Source of the DNA: an uncultured Veillonella sp.
GTDB taxonomy: Bacteria > Bacillota > Negativicutes > Veillonellales > Veillonellaceae
Direction of reading: 5' to 3'
Assembly: GCF_900545795.1 (NCBI RefSeq)
Contig: NZ_URAR01000003.1
Coordinates: 2,490 to 66,489 of the forward strand
DNA length: 64,000 nt
Shown: positions 9,060 through 60,445 of the stretch, piece by piece
Numbering within the stretch: position 1 is the first letter of the stretch
Layout of the letters: each line of letters begins with the position of its first letter
Translations under genes and position numbers: made by a program
Notes under the pieces: generated by a model
What the model was told of the DNA's origin: nothing
The model's database searches: none
What the model saw: the letters and a program-made list of their open reading frames with translations, nothing else

Positions 9060-9240
9060 AGTTAGCGCCTTACTGATTTTATAGCTAGCATCTTAAATGC
9101 TTAATATTTAGTGCCTTAGATGTTTTTAATGCCTTAGTTGCATTTTAGTACTTTAGATTCATTTTAATACCTTAGCTGCTTTACATTTAGTTCTTACATG
9201 CTTTTATATTTAGACACTTAGGTGCTTTTATATTATGTAG
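9060..9240. repeat. degenerate AT-rich tandem repeat array (about 21-bp period, TTAG-containing units)
   Basis: Units such as ttagatgtttttaatgcc / ttagttgcattttagtac / tttagattcattttaatacc / ttagctgctttacatttag recur about 8 times, directly 5' of the SPOUT gene start. Confidence 0.6.
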
Positions 9241-12516: not shown

Positions 12517-12608
12517 TAAACTGAATAGCGACTACACTAGATACTAACTAGACTATATTCAGACTACACTAGGTACTACGTGAACTATATTCAAGCTAAA
12601 CTGAATAC
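12517..12608. repeat. nested direct repeats in the tpiA-gpmI spacer
   Basis: 12-bp CTAAACTGAATA at 12517 and 12597 flanks two copies of an approximately 35-42-bp unit gactacactag(a/g)tact...actatattca. Confidence 0.55.
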
Positions 12609-17214: not shown

Positions 17215-17335
17215 CCTCCGTTACGCAGTGCTCCTCAAGTTTTATTACGCAATATTCCGCAGGTTTTATTACGCAATAAGCCTCAGGTTTTATTGCGCCA
17301 TACTCCTCAGATTTTATTAAGCAATAATACCCATA
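17215..17335. repeat. tandem repeat array, approximately 24-bp period (GTTTTATTACGCAATA core)
   Basis: Four to five units cctcaagttttattacgcaatat / ccgcaggttttattacgcaataag / cctcaggttttattgcgccatac / tcctcagattttattaagcaataat. The last unit overlaps the stop codon of the M20 gene. Confidence 0.65.
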
Positions 17336-18429
17336 TTTTTAAGTACAGTTAGATAAATCTTAACACCATTTTCTAATGCAGTAGTATCAAAGCTCATATC
17401 TGGGTGATGTAAACCTGGTTTTAAATCACAACCTAAACCAAAGAAACCGGCTTTTAAATTGGGATAACGATTTGTATATACCCAGAAATCTTCCCCACCT
17501 GGTGTAATAACTTCTGGCACCATATTTTCTTCGCCCAATACTTCTGAGATAGCTTCTTTTAATAGATCAATACATTCTTCATTATGTTCTGCTGCTGTTA
17601 GCATTTTGCTATCATCATATTCTACAGTACAGCCATTAGCTTGACCTGCATTAGTTATAGCTGTAATTACTTTTTGATGAAGCTCTTTCATCGTTGGGTT
17701 TAGCTGTGCACGCAAGTCCCAAGTAACAAAGGCCTTCTCAGGAATACTATTTGTTACACCGCTATCAGCATGGAATTGAGTTGCTTTTACACTATAGGAC
17801 TCAGTAGGACGCAAATGAATTGTATTTACTGCATTAATCGCCAATACAGCTGCATCAAGAGCATTAACGCCTAAATGTGGGCGTGCTGCATGACTTGTAA
17901 CACCTGTAAAGGTAGCTTGAATTGTTGCCGAAGAAGCATAATAGATGGCGGCTACAGCTTGACCATTGCTGGCTTCTTCAATAGGACGCACATGAGCGCC
18001 AAATGCATAATCCACACCTTCTAATACACCTGCATCAGCAATTGCATGAGCGCCAGTGCCCAACTCTTCAGCTGGTTGGAATAAAAATTTTAATTTACCA
18101 TTAGCTACTGGATAGTATTTAATTACTTCTTCTGCTGTTGCTAAGACCATAGAAGAATGACTATCATGACCACAAGTATGGCGCAACACAGTCTCACCAT
18201 TAATATTGTGAGCTAAGCAGTCCATATCAGCGCGAAGCAATACAGTCGGACCTGGTTTTCCACTGTCCAAAGTAGCTACTACACCAGTAGTGCCACCTAC
18301 ACCAGTTTGAATATCTGTATAGCCAAACTCAGCTAGTTTATCGGCAATAAACTTAGATGTTTTTACCTCTTGAAAACCTAATTCTGGAATTGTGTGCAAA
18401 TGATTATAATAATCTAATACATGACTCAT
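17317..18429 (-). CDS. M20 family amidohydrolase (N-acyl-L-amino acid amidohydrolase / hippurate hydrolase-like)
   Basis: 370 aa. M20D metal-binding motifs (ADMDCL, HTCGHD, FLFQPAEE) and dimerisation domain. Confidence 0.75.
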   Translation of the reverse strand: MSHVLDYYNHLHTIPELGFQEVKTSKFIADKLAEFGYTDIQTGVGGTTGVVATLDSGKPGPTVLLRADMDCLAHNINGETVLRHTCGHDSHSSMVLATAEEVIKYYPVANGKLKFLFQPAEELGTGAHAIADAGVLEGVDYAFGAHVRPIEEASNGQAVAAIYYASSATIQATFTGVTSHAARPHLGVNALDAAVLAINAVNTIHLRPTESYSVKATQFHADSGVTNSIPEKAFVTWDLRAQLNPTMKELHQKVITAITNAGQANGCTVEYDDSKMLTAAEHNEECIDLLKEAISEVLGEENMVPEVITPGGEDFWVYTNRYPNLKAGFFGLGCDLKPGLHHPDMSFDTTALENGVKIYLTVLKNMGIIA

Positions 18430-20549: not shown

Positions 20550-20605
20550 GATTGTCTATTGATTTTTTTTCATTATAATTATGCACAAAGGGAAAGTATA
20601 TATTT

Positions 20606-20735
20606 CCTTACACTTTATATCCCTCATTATCTTAGGCTTTATATTCCCCATTACCTTAACTTTACATTGCCCATTACTTTAGCTTTACATTAACCCACTA
20701 CTTTAGGATATCTCCCATCACCTTAGCCTTTTTAG
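20606..20735. repeat. tandem repeat array, approximately 23-24-bp period (CCATTAC-TTAG-CTTTACATT units)
   Basis: Units ctcattatcttaggctttatattcc / ccattaccttaactttacattgc / ccattactttagctttacattaac / ccactactttaggatatctccc / atcaccttagcctttttag. Confidence 0.65.
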
Positions 20736-23726: not shown

Positions 23727-24173
23727 TTACATTTTTTCAATAATATGAGGCCAACTTTTTTCAATAAGCGCCTCGATTTGCTTAGCACATTCTATATATT
23801 CTTCCTGTGTACCACCAAATGGATCCTGCACATCTTCACCAGTGCCAGCTAATTCGCCAAGACTCACAATTTTATCCTTTAAATTAGGAAATTGTCGCAA
23901 CAAAGTATTTTTGTGATCACTTGAAAGTCCTACCACTAAATCAGCGGCGTCAATAAGAGGAATGGAAAGTGGTCGTGTTTGATGACTGGAAATATCTACT
24001 AAGTCTTTCACGGCCTCTCGCGCATAAGGTGATACAGTACCACCAGGAACACAGAATAAGCCTGCAGACAAAGTCACAATATTCTGTTGTTCCTTCTCCG
24101 CTTTAGCGCGAAGCAAACCTTCTGCCATAGGGCTACGGCAAGTATTGCCGGTACAAACAAATAATATATTCAT
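23727..24173 (-). CDS. low-molecular-weight protein-tyrosine/arginine phosphatase (YwlE-like)
   Basis: Start reassigned to ATG 24173 (MNILFVCTGNTCRSPMAEG..., P-loop CX5R). RBS GAAGAGG. Conserved position next to sua5 and rpiB, as in the B. subtilis ywlC-ywlE-ywlF cluster. Confidence 0.8.
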   Translation of the reverse strand: MNILFVCTGNTCRSPMAEGLLRAKAEKEQQNIVTLSAGLFCVPGGTVSPYAREAVKDLVDISSHQTRPLSIPLIDAADLVVGLSSDHKNTLLRQFPNLKDKIVSLGELAGTGEDVQDPFGGTQEEYIECAKQIEALIEKSWPHIIEKM

Positions 24174-24261: not shown

Positions 24262-24415
24262 AGCCTACTGCTAAGCTATCAGTAAAGTACCAATAATCTG
24301 CTCAAAACTATCAGTAAGCGCCCAACAAACTACCACTAAGCTTCTAATAAGCTACTGCTAAGTTACCAATAACTTACTACTAAACTTCTGTCAAATTACT
24401 AAGTGGCCAATAAGT
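24262..24415. repeat. degenerate repeats (CTACTGCTAAG / TACCAATAA motifs) in the sua5-ywlE spacer
   Basis: Two copies of an approximately 55-65-bp unit with internal sub-repeats. Confidence 0.45.
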
Positions 24416-24420
24416 ATACA

Positions 24421-25815
24421 TTAGATATAAAATACTTGGTGCGCACTGGCTTTATCTAAGCGATTCATAATGGCCTTGCCTAGCCCTTCTGGCTTAACAC
24501 CAGTAGCAAAAATACGAGTTACCTTAGCTTCATTGAACTCCAATAACGAACGATATAATTTGCGAGCTAAACTTTTATAGTCAGAAGACTTGCCATACAC
24601 AATTAGATGATAAGGCAAAGCGAAATGGTCCAGCGTCCCCTTTAATTCAGCAGCTACCTCTTCACTCACCAAAAGACCAATTTTATCAGCTTCACTAAAT
24701 GGAGTGACAGCCACTTTAAACTGCGATGAATCTTTATAGTCTATCATACAGGACACAAAACGTCCTCTAGTCTCTAATACTTCACCTAATGCCTTACTGA
24801 GTTCCTTATTAGTCCCTACAAGAGTGATTAAATTAGCATTAGGTGCATAGTGCTTATATTTCATGCCTGGTGCCTTAGGGGCTACTTCAGGAGCCGTAAG
24901 AGCTTCGTCAAAATCAACTTGCCCTTCACCTAATACAGCTTCTAGCATAGCCTTCGTAATCGCCCCAGGACGTAAAATTGTAACACCCTTAGCATGGCAT
25001 TCTACAATCGTCGACTCTAGACCTACCTCACAAGGGCCAGCATCAGCAATGGCTTCAATGCGTCCTTTCATATCCTCATATACATCAGAGGCTGTCGTAG
25101 GACTAGGCCGTCCCGATATATTAGCACTTGGGGCCGCCACCGGCACACCAGCAGCTAATAAAATCTGGCGACAAATCTCATGATCTGGGCAGCGTAAAGC
25201 TACATTTAAGAGACCACCTGTAGCGCGCAAAGGCACTGCCTCTGACTTAGGCATAATAATAGTTAAAGGGCCTGGCCAAAAAACCTCCATCAATCGCTTA
25301 GCTACTAATGGTACTTCTTGTACTAGAGGAGCCACAGCCTCGCTATTAGGAACATGCAAAATGAGAGGATTATCTGATGGTCGCCCTTTGGCCTCATAAA
25401 TGCGCCCCATAGCCACTTCATCTAAGCCATTGGCACCTAAGCCGTATACCGTTTCAGTGGGAATGGCTACCAATTTCCCCTCTTGAAGCAGCTGCCCTAA
25501 TTCAGCAATTACTTCTGGCGTAAAGTCTTTATAAATTACCGTCTCTACATCAAAGTCTGCTAGCACACCAGGGGCTAGATTATCAACAGTGCGTTTTGCT
25601 GTTTGACTAGCTGATTGTACTTGATTATCTATTTTTACTTGATTATCTATTTTTACTTGATTATCTATTTTTACTTGATTATCTGTACTTATTTGATTAT
25701 CTGCTCTTTTTTGATTATCTGCTCTTTTTTGATTATCTAGATTAGTTTGATTCTCTTCTTTTACTTGATTATCTACTTCAGTTTGATTGTCTTCTTTTAC
25801 TTCTTGATTACTCAT
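24421..25815 (-). CDS. tsaC: L-threonylcarbamoyladenylate synthase (Sua5/TsaC/YwlC) with an N-terminal hexapeptide-repeat extension
   Basis: YrdC domain (LVAIPTETVYGLGANGLDEVAMGRIYEAKGRPSDNPLILHV) plus a Sua5 C-terminal domain. The first ~72 aa are 11 xxxDNQ repeats. Follows prmC, as in the Firmicutes prfA-prmC-ywlC arrangement. Confidence 0.8.
   Translation of the reverse strand: MSNQEVKEDNQTEVDNQVKEENQTNLDNQKRADNQKRADNQISTDNQVKIDNQVKIDNQVKIDNQVQSASQTAKRTVDNLAPGVLADFDVETVIYKDFTPEVIAELGQLLQEGKLVAIPTETVYGLGANGLDEVAMGRIYEAKGRPSDNPLILHVPNSEAVAPLVQEVPLVAKRLMEVFWPGPLTIIMPKSEAVPLRATGGLLNVALRCPDHEICRQILLAAGVPVAAPSANISGRPSPTTASDVYEDMKGRIEAIADAGPCEVGLESTIVECHAKGVTILRPGAITKAMLEAVLGEGQVDFDEALTAPEVAPKAPGMKYKHYAPNANLITLVGTNKELSKALGEVLETRGRFVSCMIDYKDSSQFKVAVTPFSEADKIGLLVSEEVAAELKGTLDHFALPYHLIVYGKSSDYKSLARKLYRSLLEFNEAKVTRIFATGVKPEGLGKAIMNRLDKASAHQVFYI
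25603..25815 (-). repeat. 18-bp coding tandem repeat (TTGATTATCTNNNNNNNN) of about 11 copies, 3 of them identical
   Basis: ttgattatctatttttac occurs 3 times exactly at 25621-25674, followed by 8 diverged copies. Encodes VKIDNQ-type hexapeptides. Confidence 0.85.
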
Positions 25816-25854
25816 CCAGTTATTTCGACCTCCCCATAATGGGTCTCTTGTTCG

Positions 25855-26733
25855 TTATTTCTTATTCCACCGCAAGGCCCGTACTATGCCTCCTAAATCT
25901 TTAGTCATAGTAACTTCACCATAGGCACCAGTTGCCTTTGCTAGTTCGATTATTTCAGATTCTTGGCCAATGCCAATCTCAAAGGCTAAGAAGCCACCTG
26001 ATCTTAAAAACTGTGGTGCCTTTGCTAAAAGCTGTCTATAAAAATCAAGACCATCTTCACCACCATCTAAGGCAATATGAGGCTCATTTAAAACTTCTGG
26101 AGCCAAATCCGCCATATCCTTACTCGGAATATAAGGTGGATTTGACACGATAACATCAAAGGCTTCTTTATACGTATTCACATCAGTTTCTAAAGCAGTC
26201 AACATATCTGATTGCCATAATTTAGCGCGCTCAGTTAATTGAAGCTGCTCCCGATTAATAGCTGCCATCTGCAAGGCTTCTTTTGAAATATCTAGGCCAA
26301 GGCCTGTCGCCTTTGGTAAATAATGCAATAAGCTATATAAAATAGTGCCCGGACCTGTGCAAACATCCAATATATAGGGCGCTGCCTCAGGTGAAATTTG
26401 ACTCAATAAATCTTCAATAATCGTCTCTGTATCAGGACGCGGTATGAGCACATCTTTAGAAACAGAAAACATAAGACCCATGAATTCTTTCTTCCCAGTT
26501 ACAGCAGCTACACTATAACCACTGGCGCGCTCTACGACTAAAGGGCGAAACTTATCTAGTTCCTCCTTTGTCATAGGCTTATCATAATGAGTATATAAAT
26601 AAATTCGATCGACGCCTAAAACGTGAGAAAGCAGTACTTCCCCATCCAAGCGACTTGATTCGACGCCTTTGGTGTGAAAATACTGCTCTGTCCATTGGAG
26701 CAGTCGACCTATAGTCCAAAGCTCCTTAGGCAT
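25855..26733 (-). CDS. prmC: release factor glutamine N5-methyltransferase PrmC (HemK)
   Basis: NPPY motif (VSNPPYIPS) and SAM-binding LDVCTGPG. Start ATG 26733 overlaps the prfA stop by 8 nt. Confidence 0.85.
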
Positions 26734-31774: not shown

Positions 31775-31895
31775 AAATCTAATATCTGCCCTATCTATTC
31801 TAGTACCTACTGTATCTAATTTAAAGCTACTCTATCTATTTTAAATCTAATCTATCTATTTTAAATCTACTCTACCTATTTTAGTAGCTTCTGTC
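31775..31895. repeat. tandem repeat array, approximately 20-bp period (CTCTATCTATTTTAAAT)
   Basis: ctactctatctattttaaat / ctaatctatctattttaaat / ctactctacctattttagta plus degenerate flanking copies, in the divergent region between nth and the DUF896 gene. Confidence 0.6.
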
Positions 31896-48141: not shown

Positions 48142-48217
48142 ATAATTTTAATAATTTAAATCTTTATGTTAAAAATCTAAGTATTTATGGCTTTATGCTA
48201 TCTTTGTGGATTTTATG

Positions 48218-48920: not shown

Positions 48921-48954
48921 TTTATTAAATTTTACTTTAAAATTCTTAGTTATT

Positions 48955-49135
48955 TTCTACACCTAATTCTTACACTTAATTTCTACACTTAATTTCTCTA
49001 TTTAATATCTCTTCTTAATGTTTACATATAATTTCTTTAACGTTAACTTTAAATTACTTTAACTTTAACTTGAAATCTCTTTAACTTTATCTTTATTCTA
49101 ATGTTAATTCTAATTCTATATTTTAGTGTTTTGTT
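48955..49135. repeat. short tandem repeats (TACACTTAATTTC x2, TTAACTTT x4, TAATTCTA x2) in the mraZ/thrE divergent region
   Basis: Multiple AT-rich short direct repeats within a 608-bp intergenic region. Confidence 0.5.
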
Positions 49136-55938: not shown

Positions 55939-56817
55939 TTATGGCAAATATAATCGCTGTGAAGCACCGTCAATCATTATATCCACAAAGGACTCCCCAA
56001 TATATTGAATTGTCACCCCTGCTGGTCCTTCACCCACTGCATAGACACCCTCGCCTTGCGCACTATGCAATATAGCAACTAACTCTACGCCCTGTATTAT
56101 GCCTACTAATGAAATAGACCTAGAATTTAAAGTTTGACTAGTCTCACCTCGCAATGCACCTGAACTTAATACATCATGGCGACTAGTTCCATAATTATTC
56201 ATCAAACTACTTGGCTCTATTGAATCACCATTTAATTCGTCTCCTAAAGCGCCCTTATTATTTCCTGGCATATATGTATTCGACCTACGATTGGGGCGAT
56301 TATTAGACCGATTATTCAAACTATTTCTATCATAATCAAGTTGGCGTCGCCCCTTTGGTGAACTATGATTCAACTTTGAATAAAGTGAGCCCCTTGATTC
56401 ATCTACTAAATTCCCCAATCCATCCAAATCCACCACTTTACTTTGTAAGTCTCTATAAAATGGATTTTTAAAAGGTAGTCCACGAAGCGAAGCATATAAA
56501 CTCATAATCTGCTTCCCCTTCGCGCCTTCTGACTGAGAACTATACTTTGACGCACTAGGCTTCGAATTATGCATTGATGCACTATTATTCGAGTTATCCA
56601 TTGATGCACTAGGCTGCGCATTATACACCGATGTAGCAGACTTTGAATCGTTACCTACCTGCATCTGTCCTGCTTTTGCCGCTTCATTTGATGGCGACTG
56701 CCATTTCATATATAAACCATAAATTAGAACAAGGCAAAATAAAAAGACCGCCCCGTACAAGAGGCGGCCTTTCTTTTTAATTAAAGAACGCATATCTTGA
56801 AGGGTCAGTCTTTTCAT
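55939..56817 (-). CDS. secretin-associated periplasmic protein, PilP/GspC HR-domain-like (putative)
   Basis: 292 aa. N-terminal TM anchor, S/N-rich disordered linker encoded by approximately 27-bp repeats, and a C-terminal beta-domain (ISLVGIIQGVELVAILHSAQGEGVYAVGEGPAGVTIQYIGESFVDIMIDG). Located immediately upstream of the secretin. Confidence 0.4.
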   Translation of the reverse strand: MKRLTLQDMRSLIKKKGRLLYGAVFLFCLVLIYGLYMKWQSPSNEAAKAGQMQVGNDSKSATSVYNAQPSASMDNSNNSASMHNSKPSASKYSSQSEGAKGKQIMSLYASLRGLPFKNPFYRDLQSKVVDLDGLGNLVDESRGSLYSKLNHSSPKGRRQLDYDRNSLNNRSNNRPNRRSNTYMPGNNKGALGDELNGDSIEPSSLMNNYGTSRHDVLSSGALRGETSQTLNSRSISLVGIIQGVELVAILHSAQGEGVYAVGEGPAGVTIQYIGESFVDIMIDGASQRLYLP

Positions 56818-60344: not shown

Positions 60345-60445
60345 CCAGTAATGCTACCATTAGATTACTCGCAATACTACCGCTAGATTATTCACAATAT
60401 TAACACAATAGATTACGTGTATTACCAACAGTCAATTACCTACAG
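60345..60445. repeat. degenerate approximately 23-bp tandem repeats (TAGATTA/ATTAC motifs)
   Basis: taccattagattactcgcaatac / taccgctagattattcacaatat / taacacaatagattacgtgtat / taccaacagtcaattacctac, upstream of rnhA. Confidence 0.5.

Follow-up and report, generated by a model that had tools for sequence, protein, structure and literature searches.

We analysed a 64 kb stretch of DNA (the window) carrying sua5, the gene of a ywlC-type threonylcarbamoyl-AMP synthase, whose open reading frame (ORF) begins with an array of tandem hexapeptide-coding units. The genes run in the order prfA-prmC-sua5-LMW phosphatase, an order common to the window and to Sua5/YwlC-type systems, with 39 nt between the prmC stop codon and the sua5 ATG and no terminator found between these two genes. 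The closest database protein to the ORF is annotated as Veillonella caviae and the locus is the usual sua5 gene of a genome resembling V. caviae, with 39% GC. Bacillus ywlC encodes a Sua5/YwlC-type threonylcarbamoyl-AMP synthase. For comparison we used L001 and L002 (contigs of another V. caviae strain), L004 (an independent JGI metagenome contig) and the sister lineages L003 and L204. The features of the locus, all on the minus strand, are:

25855..26733, minus strand: prmC (release-factor methyltransferase), the upstream gene (Pfam PrmC_N and MTS; 292-aa gene call in L001 and L004)
25829..25833, minus strand: Shine-Dalgarno (SD) core GGAGG, 13 nt 5′ of the ATG (anti-SD duplex of -11.6 kcal/mol)
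25813..25815, minus strand: ATG, the most probable start codon (sole candidate with a strong SD; conserved in sister lineage L003)
24421..25815, minus strand: full sua5 ORF, 464 aa including the tail (ORF list; Pfam PF01300 and PF03481)
25603..25803, minus strand: putative coding tandem array with one 21-nt unit and ten 18-nt units, 11 in all, giving xxxDNQ-type hexapeptides (Tandem Repeats Finder, unit table, core enrichment)
25693..25728, minus strand: two KRADNQ units of identical DNA, one of them missing from an 8-unit allele (alignment of the window and L004 with L001 and L002, exact collapse test)
25621..25674, minus strand: three VKIDNQ units of identical DNA, two of them missing from the 8-unit allele (alignment, exact collapse test)
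25549..25602, minus strand: non-repetitive linker TAKRTVDNLAPGVLADFD, 18 residues, leading from the array to the conserved ETVIYKDF strand (translation, homologue alignment)
25564..25566, minus strand: GTG codon 84, the one other plausible start, 3′ of the ATG (no SD-like pairing 5′ of it, 0 kcal/mol; no equivalent codon in L003)
24964..25491, minus strand: TsaC-like (YrdC) catalytic domain, residues 109-284, with K143-x-R145 and S230-x-N232 (Pfam, invariant columns)
24442..24960, minus strand: inter-domain loop (P316-G-M ... H322-Y323) and SUA5 C-terminal domain, residues 286-458 (Pfam, invariant PGMKYKHY)
23727..24173, minus strand: low-molecular-weight phosphatase (ywlE-like), the downstream gene (Pfam LMWPc; 148-aa gene call in L001)

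Behind the array, PF01300 (Sua5_yciO_yrdC) matches residues 109-284 with an E value of 7.6e-57, covering profile positions 2-178 of 178, and PF03481 (Sua5_C) matches residues 286-458 (E 8e-29). The best solved match to the ORF is 6F87, the Sua5 of P. abyssi (E 2.7e-76), which starts ~20 residues ahead of the region aligned to query residue 109. Across an alignment of 34 homologues both halves of the KxR/SxN tetrad (K143-G-R145 and S230-A-N232) and the gating-loop residues P316-G317-M318 and H322-Y323 (PGMKYKHY) are invariant. The tetrad has been used as a filter for the Sua5/TsaC family, and the Sua5 variant is set apart from the single-domain TsaC by a C-terminal SUA5 domain and by P-G-M and H-Y in its inter-domain loop (PMC10321239). 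YrdC domain, tetrad, SUA5 domain and loop are all present, which places the protein in this family by sequence and shows the enzyme part to be complete. The same two-domain arrangement of TsaC-like and SUA5 domains, with tetrad and gating loop, is found in Sua5/YwlC-type enzymes (6F87; S. tokodaii 2EQA), from which the Sua5 of the window differs in its 89-residue repeat-built N-terminal extension. The first-pass annotation of this DNA had stated that Sua5 proteins normally lack such a tail, and this is borne out by the best 119 homologues that contain a PTET motif, of which 101 have ≤36 residues before PTET and 117 have ≤63; the remaining two, with 100 and 102 residues, are tail-bearing relatives. 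Most Veillonella homologues begin 29-33 residues before PTET.

Repeat array and its copy number

The ORF opens with ATG AGT AAT CAA on the minus strand (MSNQ, 25815-25804), followed by the units EVKEDNQ, TEVDNQ, VKEENQ, TNLDNQ, KRADNQ (twice), ISTDNQ, VKIDNQ (three times) and VQSASQ. Unit 1, EVKEDNQ, is 21 nt long (25803-25783) and so differs from the other units by 3 nt in frame, and the last unit, VQSASQ, lies at 25620-25603. MSNQ, the 11 units and the linker TAKRTVDNLAPGVLADFD together make up the tail of 89 residues. Tandem Repeats Finder returned an array of 18-bp period spanning 25621-25799, with 9.9 copies, 80% matches and no indels, and an equivalent 36-bp row at 25602-25802 (5.6 copies, ~11 units). 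Of a 9-nt core, GATAATCAA, the array contains 8 copies and the remainder of the 64 kb a single one; shuffled sequence gave a mean of 0.94 matches, and none of 100 shuffles reached 9. The earlier description of an 11-unit 18-bp tandem repeat ahead of the YrdC fold, three of its units identical, was confirmed by both the repeat finder and the unit table. As in coding VNTRs, the units lie head-to-tail and in frame with identical neighbours (twofold and threefold).

Two alleles of the array were found between close strains, differing by whole units: the window and L004 carry 11 units, while L001 and L002 carry an 8-unit allele known from short-read metagenome assemblies (sources ERZ27241767 / GCA_034102625.1). 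L004 shows 3 mismatches to the window over 9395 nt. Identity to the window is 99.6-99.7% for L001 and 99.1-99.6% for L002, and these two contigs, both with 8 units, differ from each other at 4 positions in 6565 nt. The 8-unit allele misses exactly one KRADNQ and two VKIDNQ copies, and once those copies were collapsed in an exact collapse test the sua5 of L001 was identical to that of the window over 1341 nt, with flanks differing by 0.3-0.4%. Every unit is unique in the 8-unit allele, and the 11-unit form therefore probably arose by recent duplications. Identity over 1341 nt despite the unit difference, beside flanks that have diverged, indicates that unit gain and loss outpaces point substitution at the array, which is the expectation for slippage between identical neighbours. 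A recent expansion, previously proposed from the identical copies, agrees with this 8-unit allele in an otherwise identical gene, and the copy-number variation suggested at the same time is found in the strain comparison as 8 versus 11 units. Ten hypothetical intermediate alleles had no exact match in a protein collection that also misses the window's own allele, and an exact 34-nt start-region pattern had no match in the metagenome contigs, though the JGI contig elsewhere carries it.

Translation start of the extended ORF

The GGAGG ribosome binding site previously noted at ATG 25815 is present, but its spacing is 13 nt and not the 12 nt given at that time. At -11.6 kcal/mol its pairing is on par with that of other genes in the window, nearly all of which have SD pairing of -6 to -14 kcal/mol. 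The 13-nt spacing is longer than that of any other window gene (2-11 nt), so that initiation may be inefficient. The GGAGGT[C/T][G/A]AA context of the SD is kept in L003 and L204. L003, at 72% identity, has a 73-residue non-repetitive tail (MASNMEVKEE...) behind GGGAGG and an ATG, and L204 a 33-residue tail behind AAGGAGG and a GTG; pairing at these first starts amounts to -11.7 and -12.0 kcal/mol, as against 0 to -4.3 kcal/mol at internal candidates. The start region of the window can be aligned with that of L003 (MSNQEVKED and MASNMEVKEE). The canonical start Met is gone in all three lineages, replaced by GTA, ATA and ATT (Val or Ile), whereas V. criceti retains an ATG that follows the prmC stop by one base. 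As had been claimed, the repeat and the fold have no in-frame ATG between them; the only in-frame alternatives are GTG codon 84 and TTG codon 115, the latter inside the catalytic fold.

We scored codon usage against tables derived from the genes of the window itself. The window tail reaches a log-likelihood of +70 bits over 71 codons with duplicates removed, a score leaning on a few repeated codons common in the genome, so that independent support comes mainly from the sister lineages, whose tails score +71 bits over 73 codons (L003) and +30 over 34 codons (L204). Control chunks of genes read in frame scored 60+/-15 (73 codons) and 27+/-9 (34 codons), intergenic sequence came out at -23+/-21 (34 codons), and shifted frames gave -95 and -123. 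Sliding windows along sua5 showed no drop in codon usage across the tail, and from the stop-codon frequency of the window's intergenic DNA a 73-codon frame would be open by chance with an expectation of 0.004. The SD energies, the gene-like codon usage, the start conserved in sister lineages and the loss of the canonical Met all support translation of the repeat, which had been called plausible, and we conclude that the tail is very probably translated from ATG 25815. Predicted tryptic peptides of the tail are EDNQTEVDNQVK, ADNQISTDNQVK, IDNQVK, IDNQVQSASQTAK and TVDNLAPGVLADFDVETVIYK, the last of which spans GTG codon 84; with the GTG start the predicted N-terminus is MLADFDVETVIYK.

Were the repeat instead an untranslated 5′ leader, with Sua5 made from GTG 25566 (MLADFDVETVIY...) and the open frame coincidental, the protein would have a normal length, with 36 residues before PTET against 26-44 in homologues. 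This reading would also suit the long SD spacing at ATG 25815 and the many non-coding tandem arrays of the same genome, and since one of the three minus-strand unit frames is open, a frame match has a prior of ~1/3. Yet GTG 25566 has no SD at all in a window where nearly every gene has one; L003 lacks a start codon at the corresponding position and has a 73-codon non-repetitive extension that is both open and coding-like; and unit 1 differs by an in-frame 3-nt indel. A cis-regulatory RNA leader was rejected on the lack of an Rfam match at E<=1, an MFE z-score of -0.61, the missing terminator and a sequence unconserved in the sister lineages. An untranslated leader is on these grounds improbable. 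It is still harder to credit that the array acts as DNA, as iteron-like sites for a regulator or replication protein to which coding would be secondary. Eleven direct repeats in which a 9-bp core is conserved and a 9-bp spacer varies have the right look, but the core GATAATCAA is found only once elsewhere in the 64 kb, the 18-bp period is out of helical phase, the array sits within a coding-like ORF inside an operon, the repeat is missing at this site in sister lineages, and a scan of metagenome contigs for three copies of GATAATCAA-N9 gave, among the matches listed, only protein low-complexity regions; iteron-like direct repeats were accordingly rejected. An assembly artefact, whether of the array or of its copy-number difference, would be favoured by the 8-unit contigs being metagenome assemblies (the name of L001 is that of a k141 contig) that miss exactly the identical copies. 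Such an origin is highly improbable, as the array occurs in four different contigs (window, L004, L001 and L002), L001 and L002 both have 8 units while being non-identical, and k=141 exceeds the 66-nt periodic stretch; collapse of exact copies in short-read assembly is unlikely. For the array itself the artefact that the first-pass annotation had allowed for is contradicted by L004, an independent contig with the same 11 units.

Properties, origin and context of the tail

The tail is very hydrophilic, with N, Q and D making up 43% of its residues, a net charge of -6 and a mean Kyte-Doolittle value of -1.36 as against +0.07 for the rest of the protein, and it contains no hydrophobic segment. 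Pfam gave no match to it even at E<=10. AlphaFold2 models residues 6-78 as one helix with pLDDT of 49-76, compared with >90 for most of the domains; a predicted helix of such low-to-moderate pLDDT is typical of a flexible, solvent-exposed segment. A protein search with the tail only returned no scoring match, probably through composition filtering since even P0001 was not returned. With the tail-less protein, a scan of genome contigs gave generic Sua5 peptides and, among the matches listed, no Veillonella locus. The metagenome scan for three copies of GATAATCAA-N9 listed at least 119 stretches, all of them unrelated (DNQ)n or xxxDNQ low-complexity regions and, among the matches listed, none in a Sua5, so that DNQ-type repeats are generic. 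We also considered a left-handed beta-helix hexapeptide repeat (PF00132), which shares the six-residue periodicity and whose consensus, which we take to be [LIV]-[GAED]-X2-[STAV]-X, is superficially fitted by IDNQVK; it was rejected on the missing Pfam match at this cut-off and on the AlphaFold2 helix.

Between lineages only about the first 9 residues of the tail can be aligned and its length differs (33, 73 and 71-89 aa), and no repeat of the array type was seen at this site in the sister lineages. Among three strains of the L003 lineage pN/pS is 0.25-0.62 in the tail and 0.10-0.16 in the domains, with no indels, the tail values resting on small counts of 2-5 substitutions per class. The tail would thus be coding but weakly constrained, which argues against a specific interaction surface. 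The added interaction surface proposed in the first-pass annotation finds no support in a tail sequence that is unconserved between lineages, lacks a domain match and has the higher pN/pS in the sister lineage. Since its sequence is unconserved, the tail is most likely a dispensable, fast-evolving appendage.

A functional tail, acting as a spacer or interaction module (for instance with TsaD/TsaB/TsaE or tRNA) or as a codon-level sensor of t6A, could account for an extension kept in three lineages and for pN/pS below 1 in the sister-lineage tail. The ANN-codon fraction of the tail, 0.40 (0.44 for its repeat part), compares with 0.28+/-0.025 in genes and exceeds the 99th percentile of 89-codon windows; L003 has 0.37 and L204 0.41, and the rare codons ATA and AGA occur within the duplicated units. 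However, neither length nor sequence is conserved across lineages, no Pfam domain is matched, and copy number differs among near-identical strains. The ANN excess is to be expected of any hydrophilic segment rich in K, N, T, S and I at 39% GC; the amino-acid make-up of such a tail in an AT-rich genome accounts for it equally well. A function of this general kind is, in our judgement, rather unlikely. Its more specific form, in which the tail would be a t6A-responsive translational sensor, an expandable ANN-rich leader of the enzyme that makes t6A, we regard as very unlikely; low t6A would slow ANN decoding and lower Sua5, the wrong direction for homeostasis. If it were true, unit gain and loss would tune the dependence of Sua5 output on the t6A state of tRNA.

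In the reading we favour, and consider likely, the array is a minisatellite within the coding sequence at the start of sua5, translated from ATG 25815 into a tolerated 89-residue extension with a complete Sua5 behind it. The canonical start Met would have been lost in the ancestor of V. caviae and the two sister lineages, initiation shifting to an upstream SD-backed start and so creating the extension. A seed hexapeptide close to this newly gained N-terminus, resembling the EVKEEQ-like hexapeptide still visible at the sister-lineage N-terminus, would then have been amplified in V. caviae as an 18-bp unit by slipped-strand or unequal-exchange duplication, with a copy number that may still be in flux, as the 8- and 11-unit alleles would indicate. 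The enzyme would tolerate the tail as a solvent-exposed, flexible or helical appendage, making TC-AMP without need of it, and at most the tail may modulate expression or solubility. Short tandem duplications abound in this clade. In the window there are ~9-10 degenerate arrays with periods of 13-24 bp in ~14 kb of non-coding DNA, as against three in ~50 kb of coding DNA. The spacer 3′ of sua5 holds a different array in each of three lineages, some spacer arrays begin within the 3′ end of the upstream gene, and none were found at the syntenic locus of V. criceti. The sua5 array looks like an in-frame, tolerated product of the short-tandem-duplication process of this clade.

Coding VNTRs are typically hosted by young, surface or contingency genes, unlike the universally conserved housekeeping enzyme that hosts the array described here. 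[quoted passage not shown] 2023, PMC10120016). The sua5 array shares with such slippage-made regions and coding VNTRs a short in-frame unit, identical neighbours, a polar and probably disordered product and whole-unit copy changes between near-identical strains; its 18-bp unit, of minisatellite scale, is longer than the 1-5 bp tracts called most common (PMC10120016). By analogy the array agrees with that account, in which low-complexity regions are transient products of slippage that reach ancient families as well (PMC10120016). In the solved TsaD-TsaC-SUA5-TcdA fusion, PDB 8IDE (PMC10484737), the match to our ORF begins at residue 412, so that a large addition ahead of a TsaC-like domain does occur naturally. 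As in the Sua5 of the window, extra sequence precedes the TsaC-like domain of 8IDE, but the addition in the window is, instead of a folded domain, a tail that is repetitive and specific to its lineage, with no homologue found. In the literature searched, neither N-terminal extensions of bacterial Sua5 nor tandem repeats of Veillonella were described.

Most likely the feature is a low-complexity expansion of the ordinary sort, unusual for the gene that hosts it, and it indicates no new mechanism in t6A biology. It suggests that a universally conserved, probably essential tRNA-modification enzyme can gain, and keep altering, a repeat-built appendage, and would be a clean case from nature in which a start codon migrates and new coding sequence then grows by slippage. 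Surveys of the family that drop proteins of >400 aa would miss a tail-bearing Sua5. The array itself could be used as a VNTR marker in V. caviae strain typing. One annotation pipeline opened a sister-lineage sua5 at ATT, avoiding the extension.

Tandem arrays in intergenic spacers

The intergenic spacers of the window are unusually dense in degenerate short tandem arrays (periods of 13-24 bp, 2-6 copies), with about 9-10 in ~14 kb of non-coding DNA, whereas ~50 kb of coding sequence holds 3. No relation was seen between the repeat units of the different intergenic arrays.

Degenerate intergenic tandem arrays in the window
9114-9234
12530-12593
17221-17339
20602-20706
24330-24389, spacer after sua5
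31791-31883
48148-48189
48941-49095
60350-60416

At the orthologous post-sua5 spacer, each of three related lineages (the window and the sister Veillonella loci L003 and L204) carries a different tandem array, and several of the arrays compared start within the 3′ end of the upstream gene, taking in its stop codon.

Arrays compared around sua5
Window: 24330-24389
L003: 4290-4436 and 5519-5556
L204: 2387-2449, 3759-3818 and 4349-4453

No tandem arrays were found at the syntenic V. criceti locus, where the spacers are much shorter. The presence of lineage-specific arrays after sua5, several starting within gene 3′ ends, together with their absence from V. criceti, suggests that a clade-specific short-duplication process is active.

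Sua5 extensions, start annotation and C-terminal half

ANN codons, which are read by t6A-modified tRNAs, are enriched in all three Sua5 N-terminal extensions, making up a fraction of 0.37-0.41, compared with 0.28 as the mean across genes. In the window sua5 tail, the units that arose by recent duplication contain two rare codons, ATA and AGA.

Extensions scored for ANN codons
Window: 25549-25815 (-)
L003: 2959-3177
L204: 2501-2602

The sua5 gene of L204 (start region 2501-2603) is present in databases in two forms (P0125 versus P0003/WP_298705948.1), an annotation inconsistency arising because the canonical start has been lost. The 425-aa form begins at a GTG backed by a Shine-Dalgarno (SD) sequence, while the initial 'M' of the 392-aa NCBI form falls on an ATT codon with no SD.

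The SUA5 domain region of the window protein (24421-24960 (-)) places 173 residues on a 136-position Pfam profile, and its AlphaFold model contains low-confidence segments (pLDDT blocks of 56-73) at Sua5 residues of about 311-330 and 351-370, which together indicate that the C-terminal half also has predicted insertions in the V. caviae group relative to the 343-aa V. parvula-type proteins.

A second in-frame repeat

A second in-frame repeat (27 bp x 3.4, 56537-56627) was observed within a 292-aa ORF at window 55939-56817 (-), in an S/N-rich low-complexity stretch C-terminal to a hydrophobic N-terminal segment. The start of this ORF is uncertain, since codon 105 is a further SD-backed ATG; the codon-usage score across the N-terminal 104 codons is weak (+12 bits).
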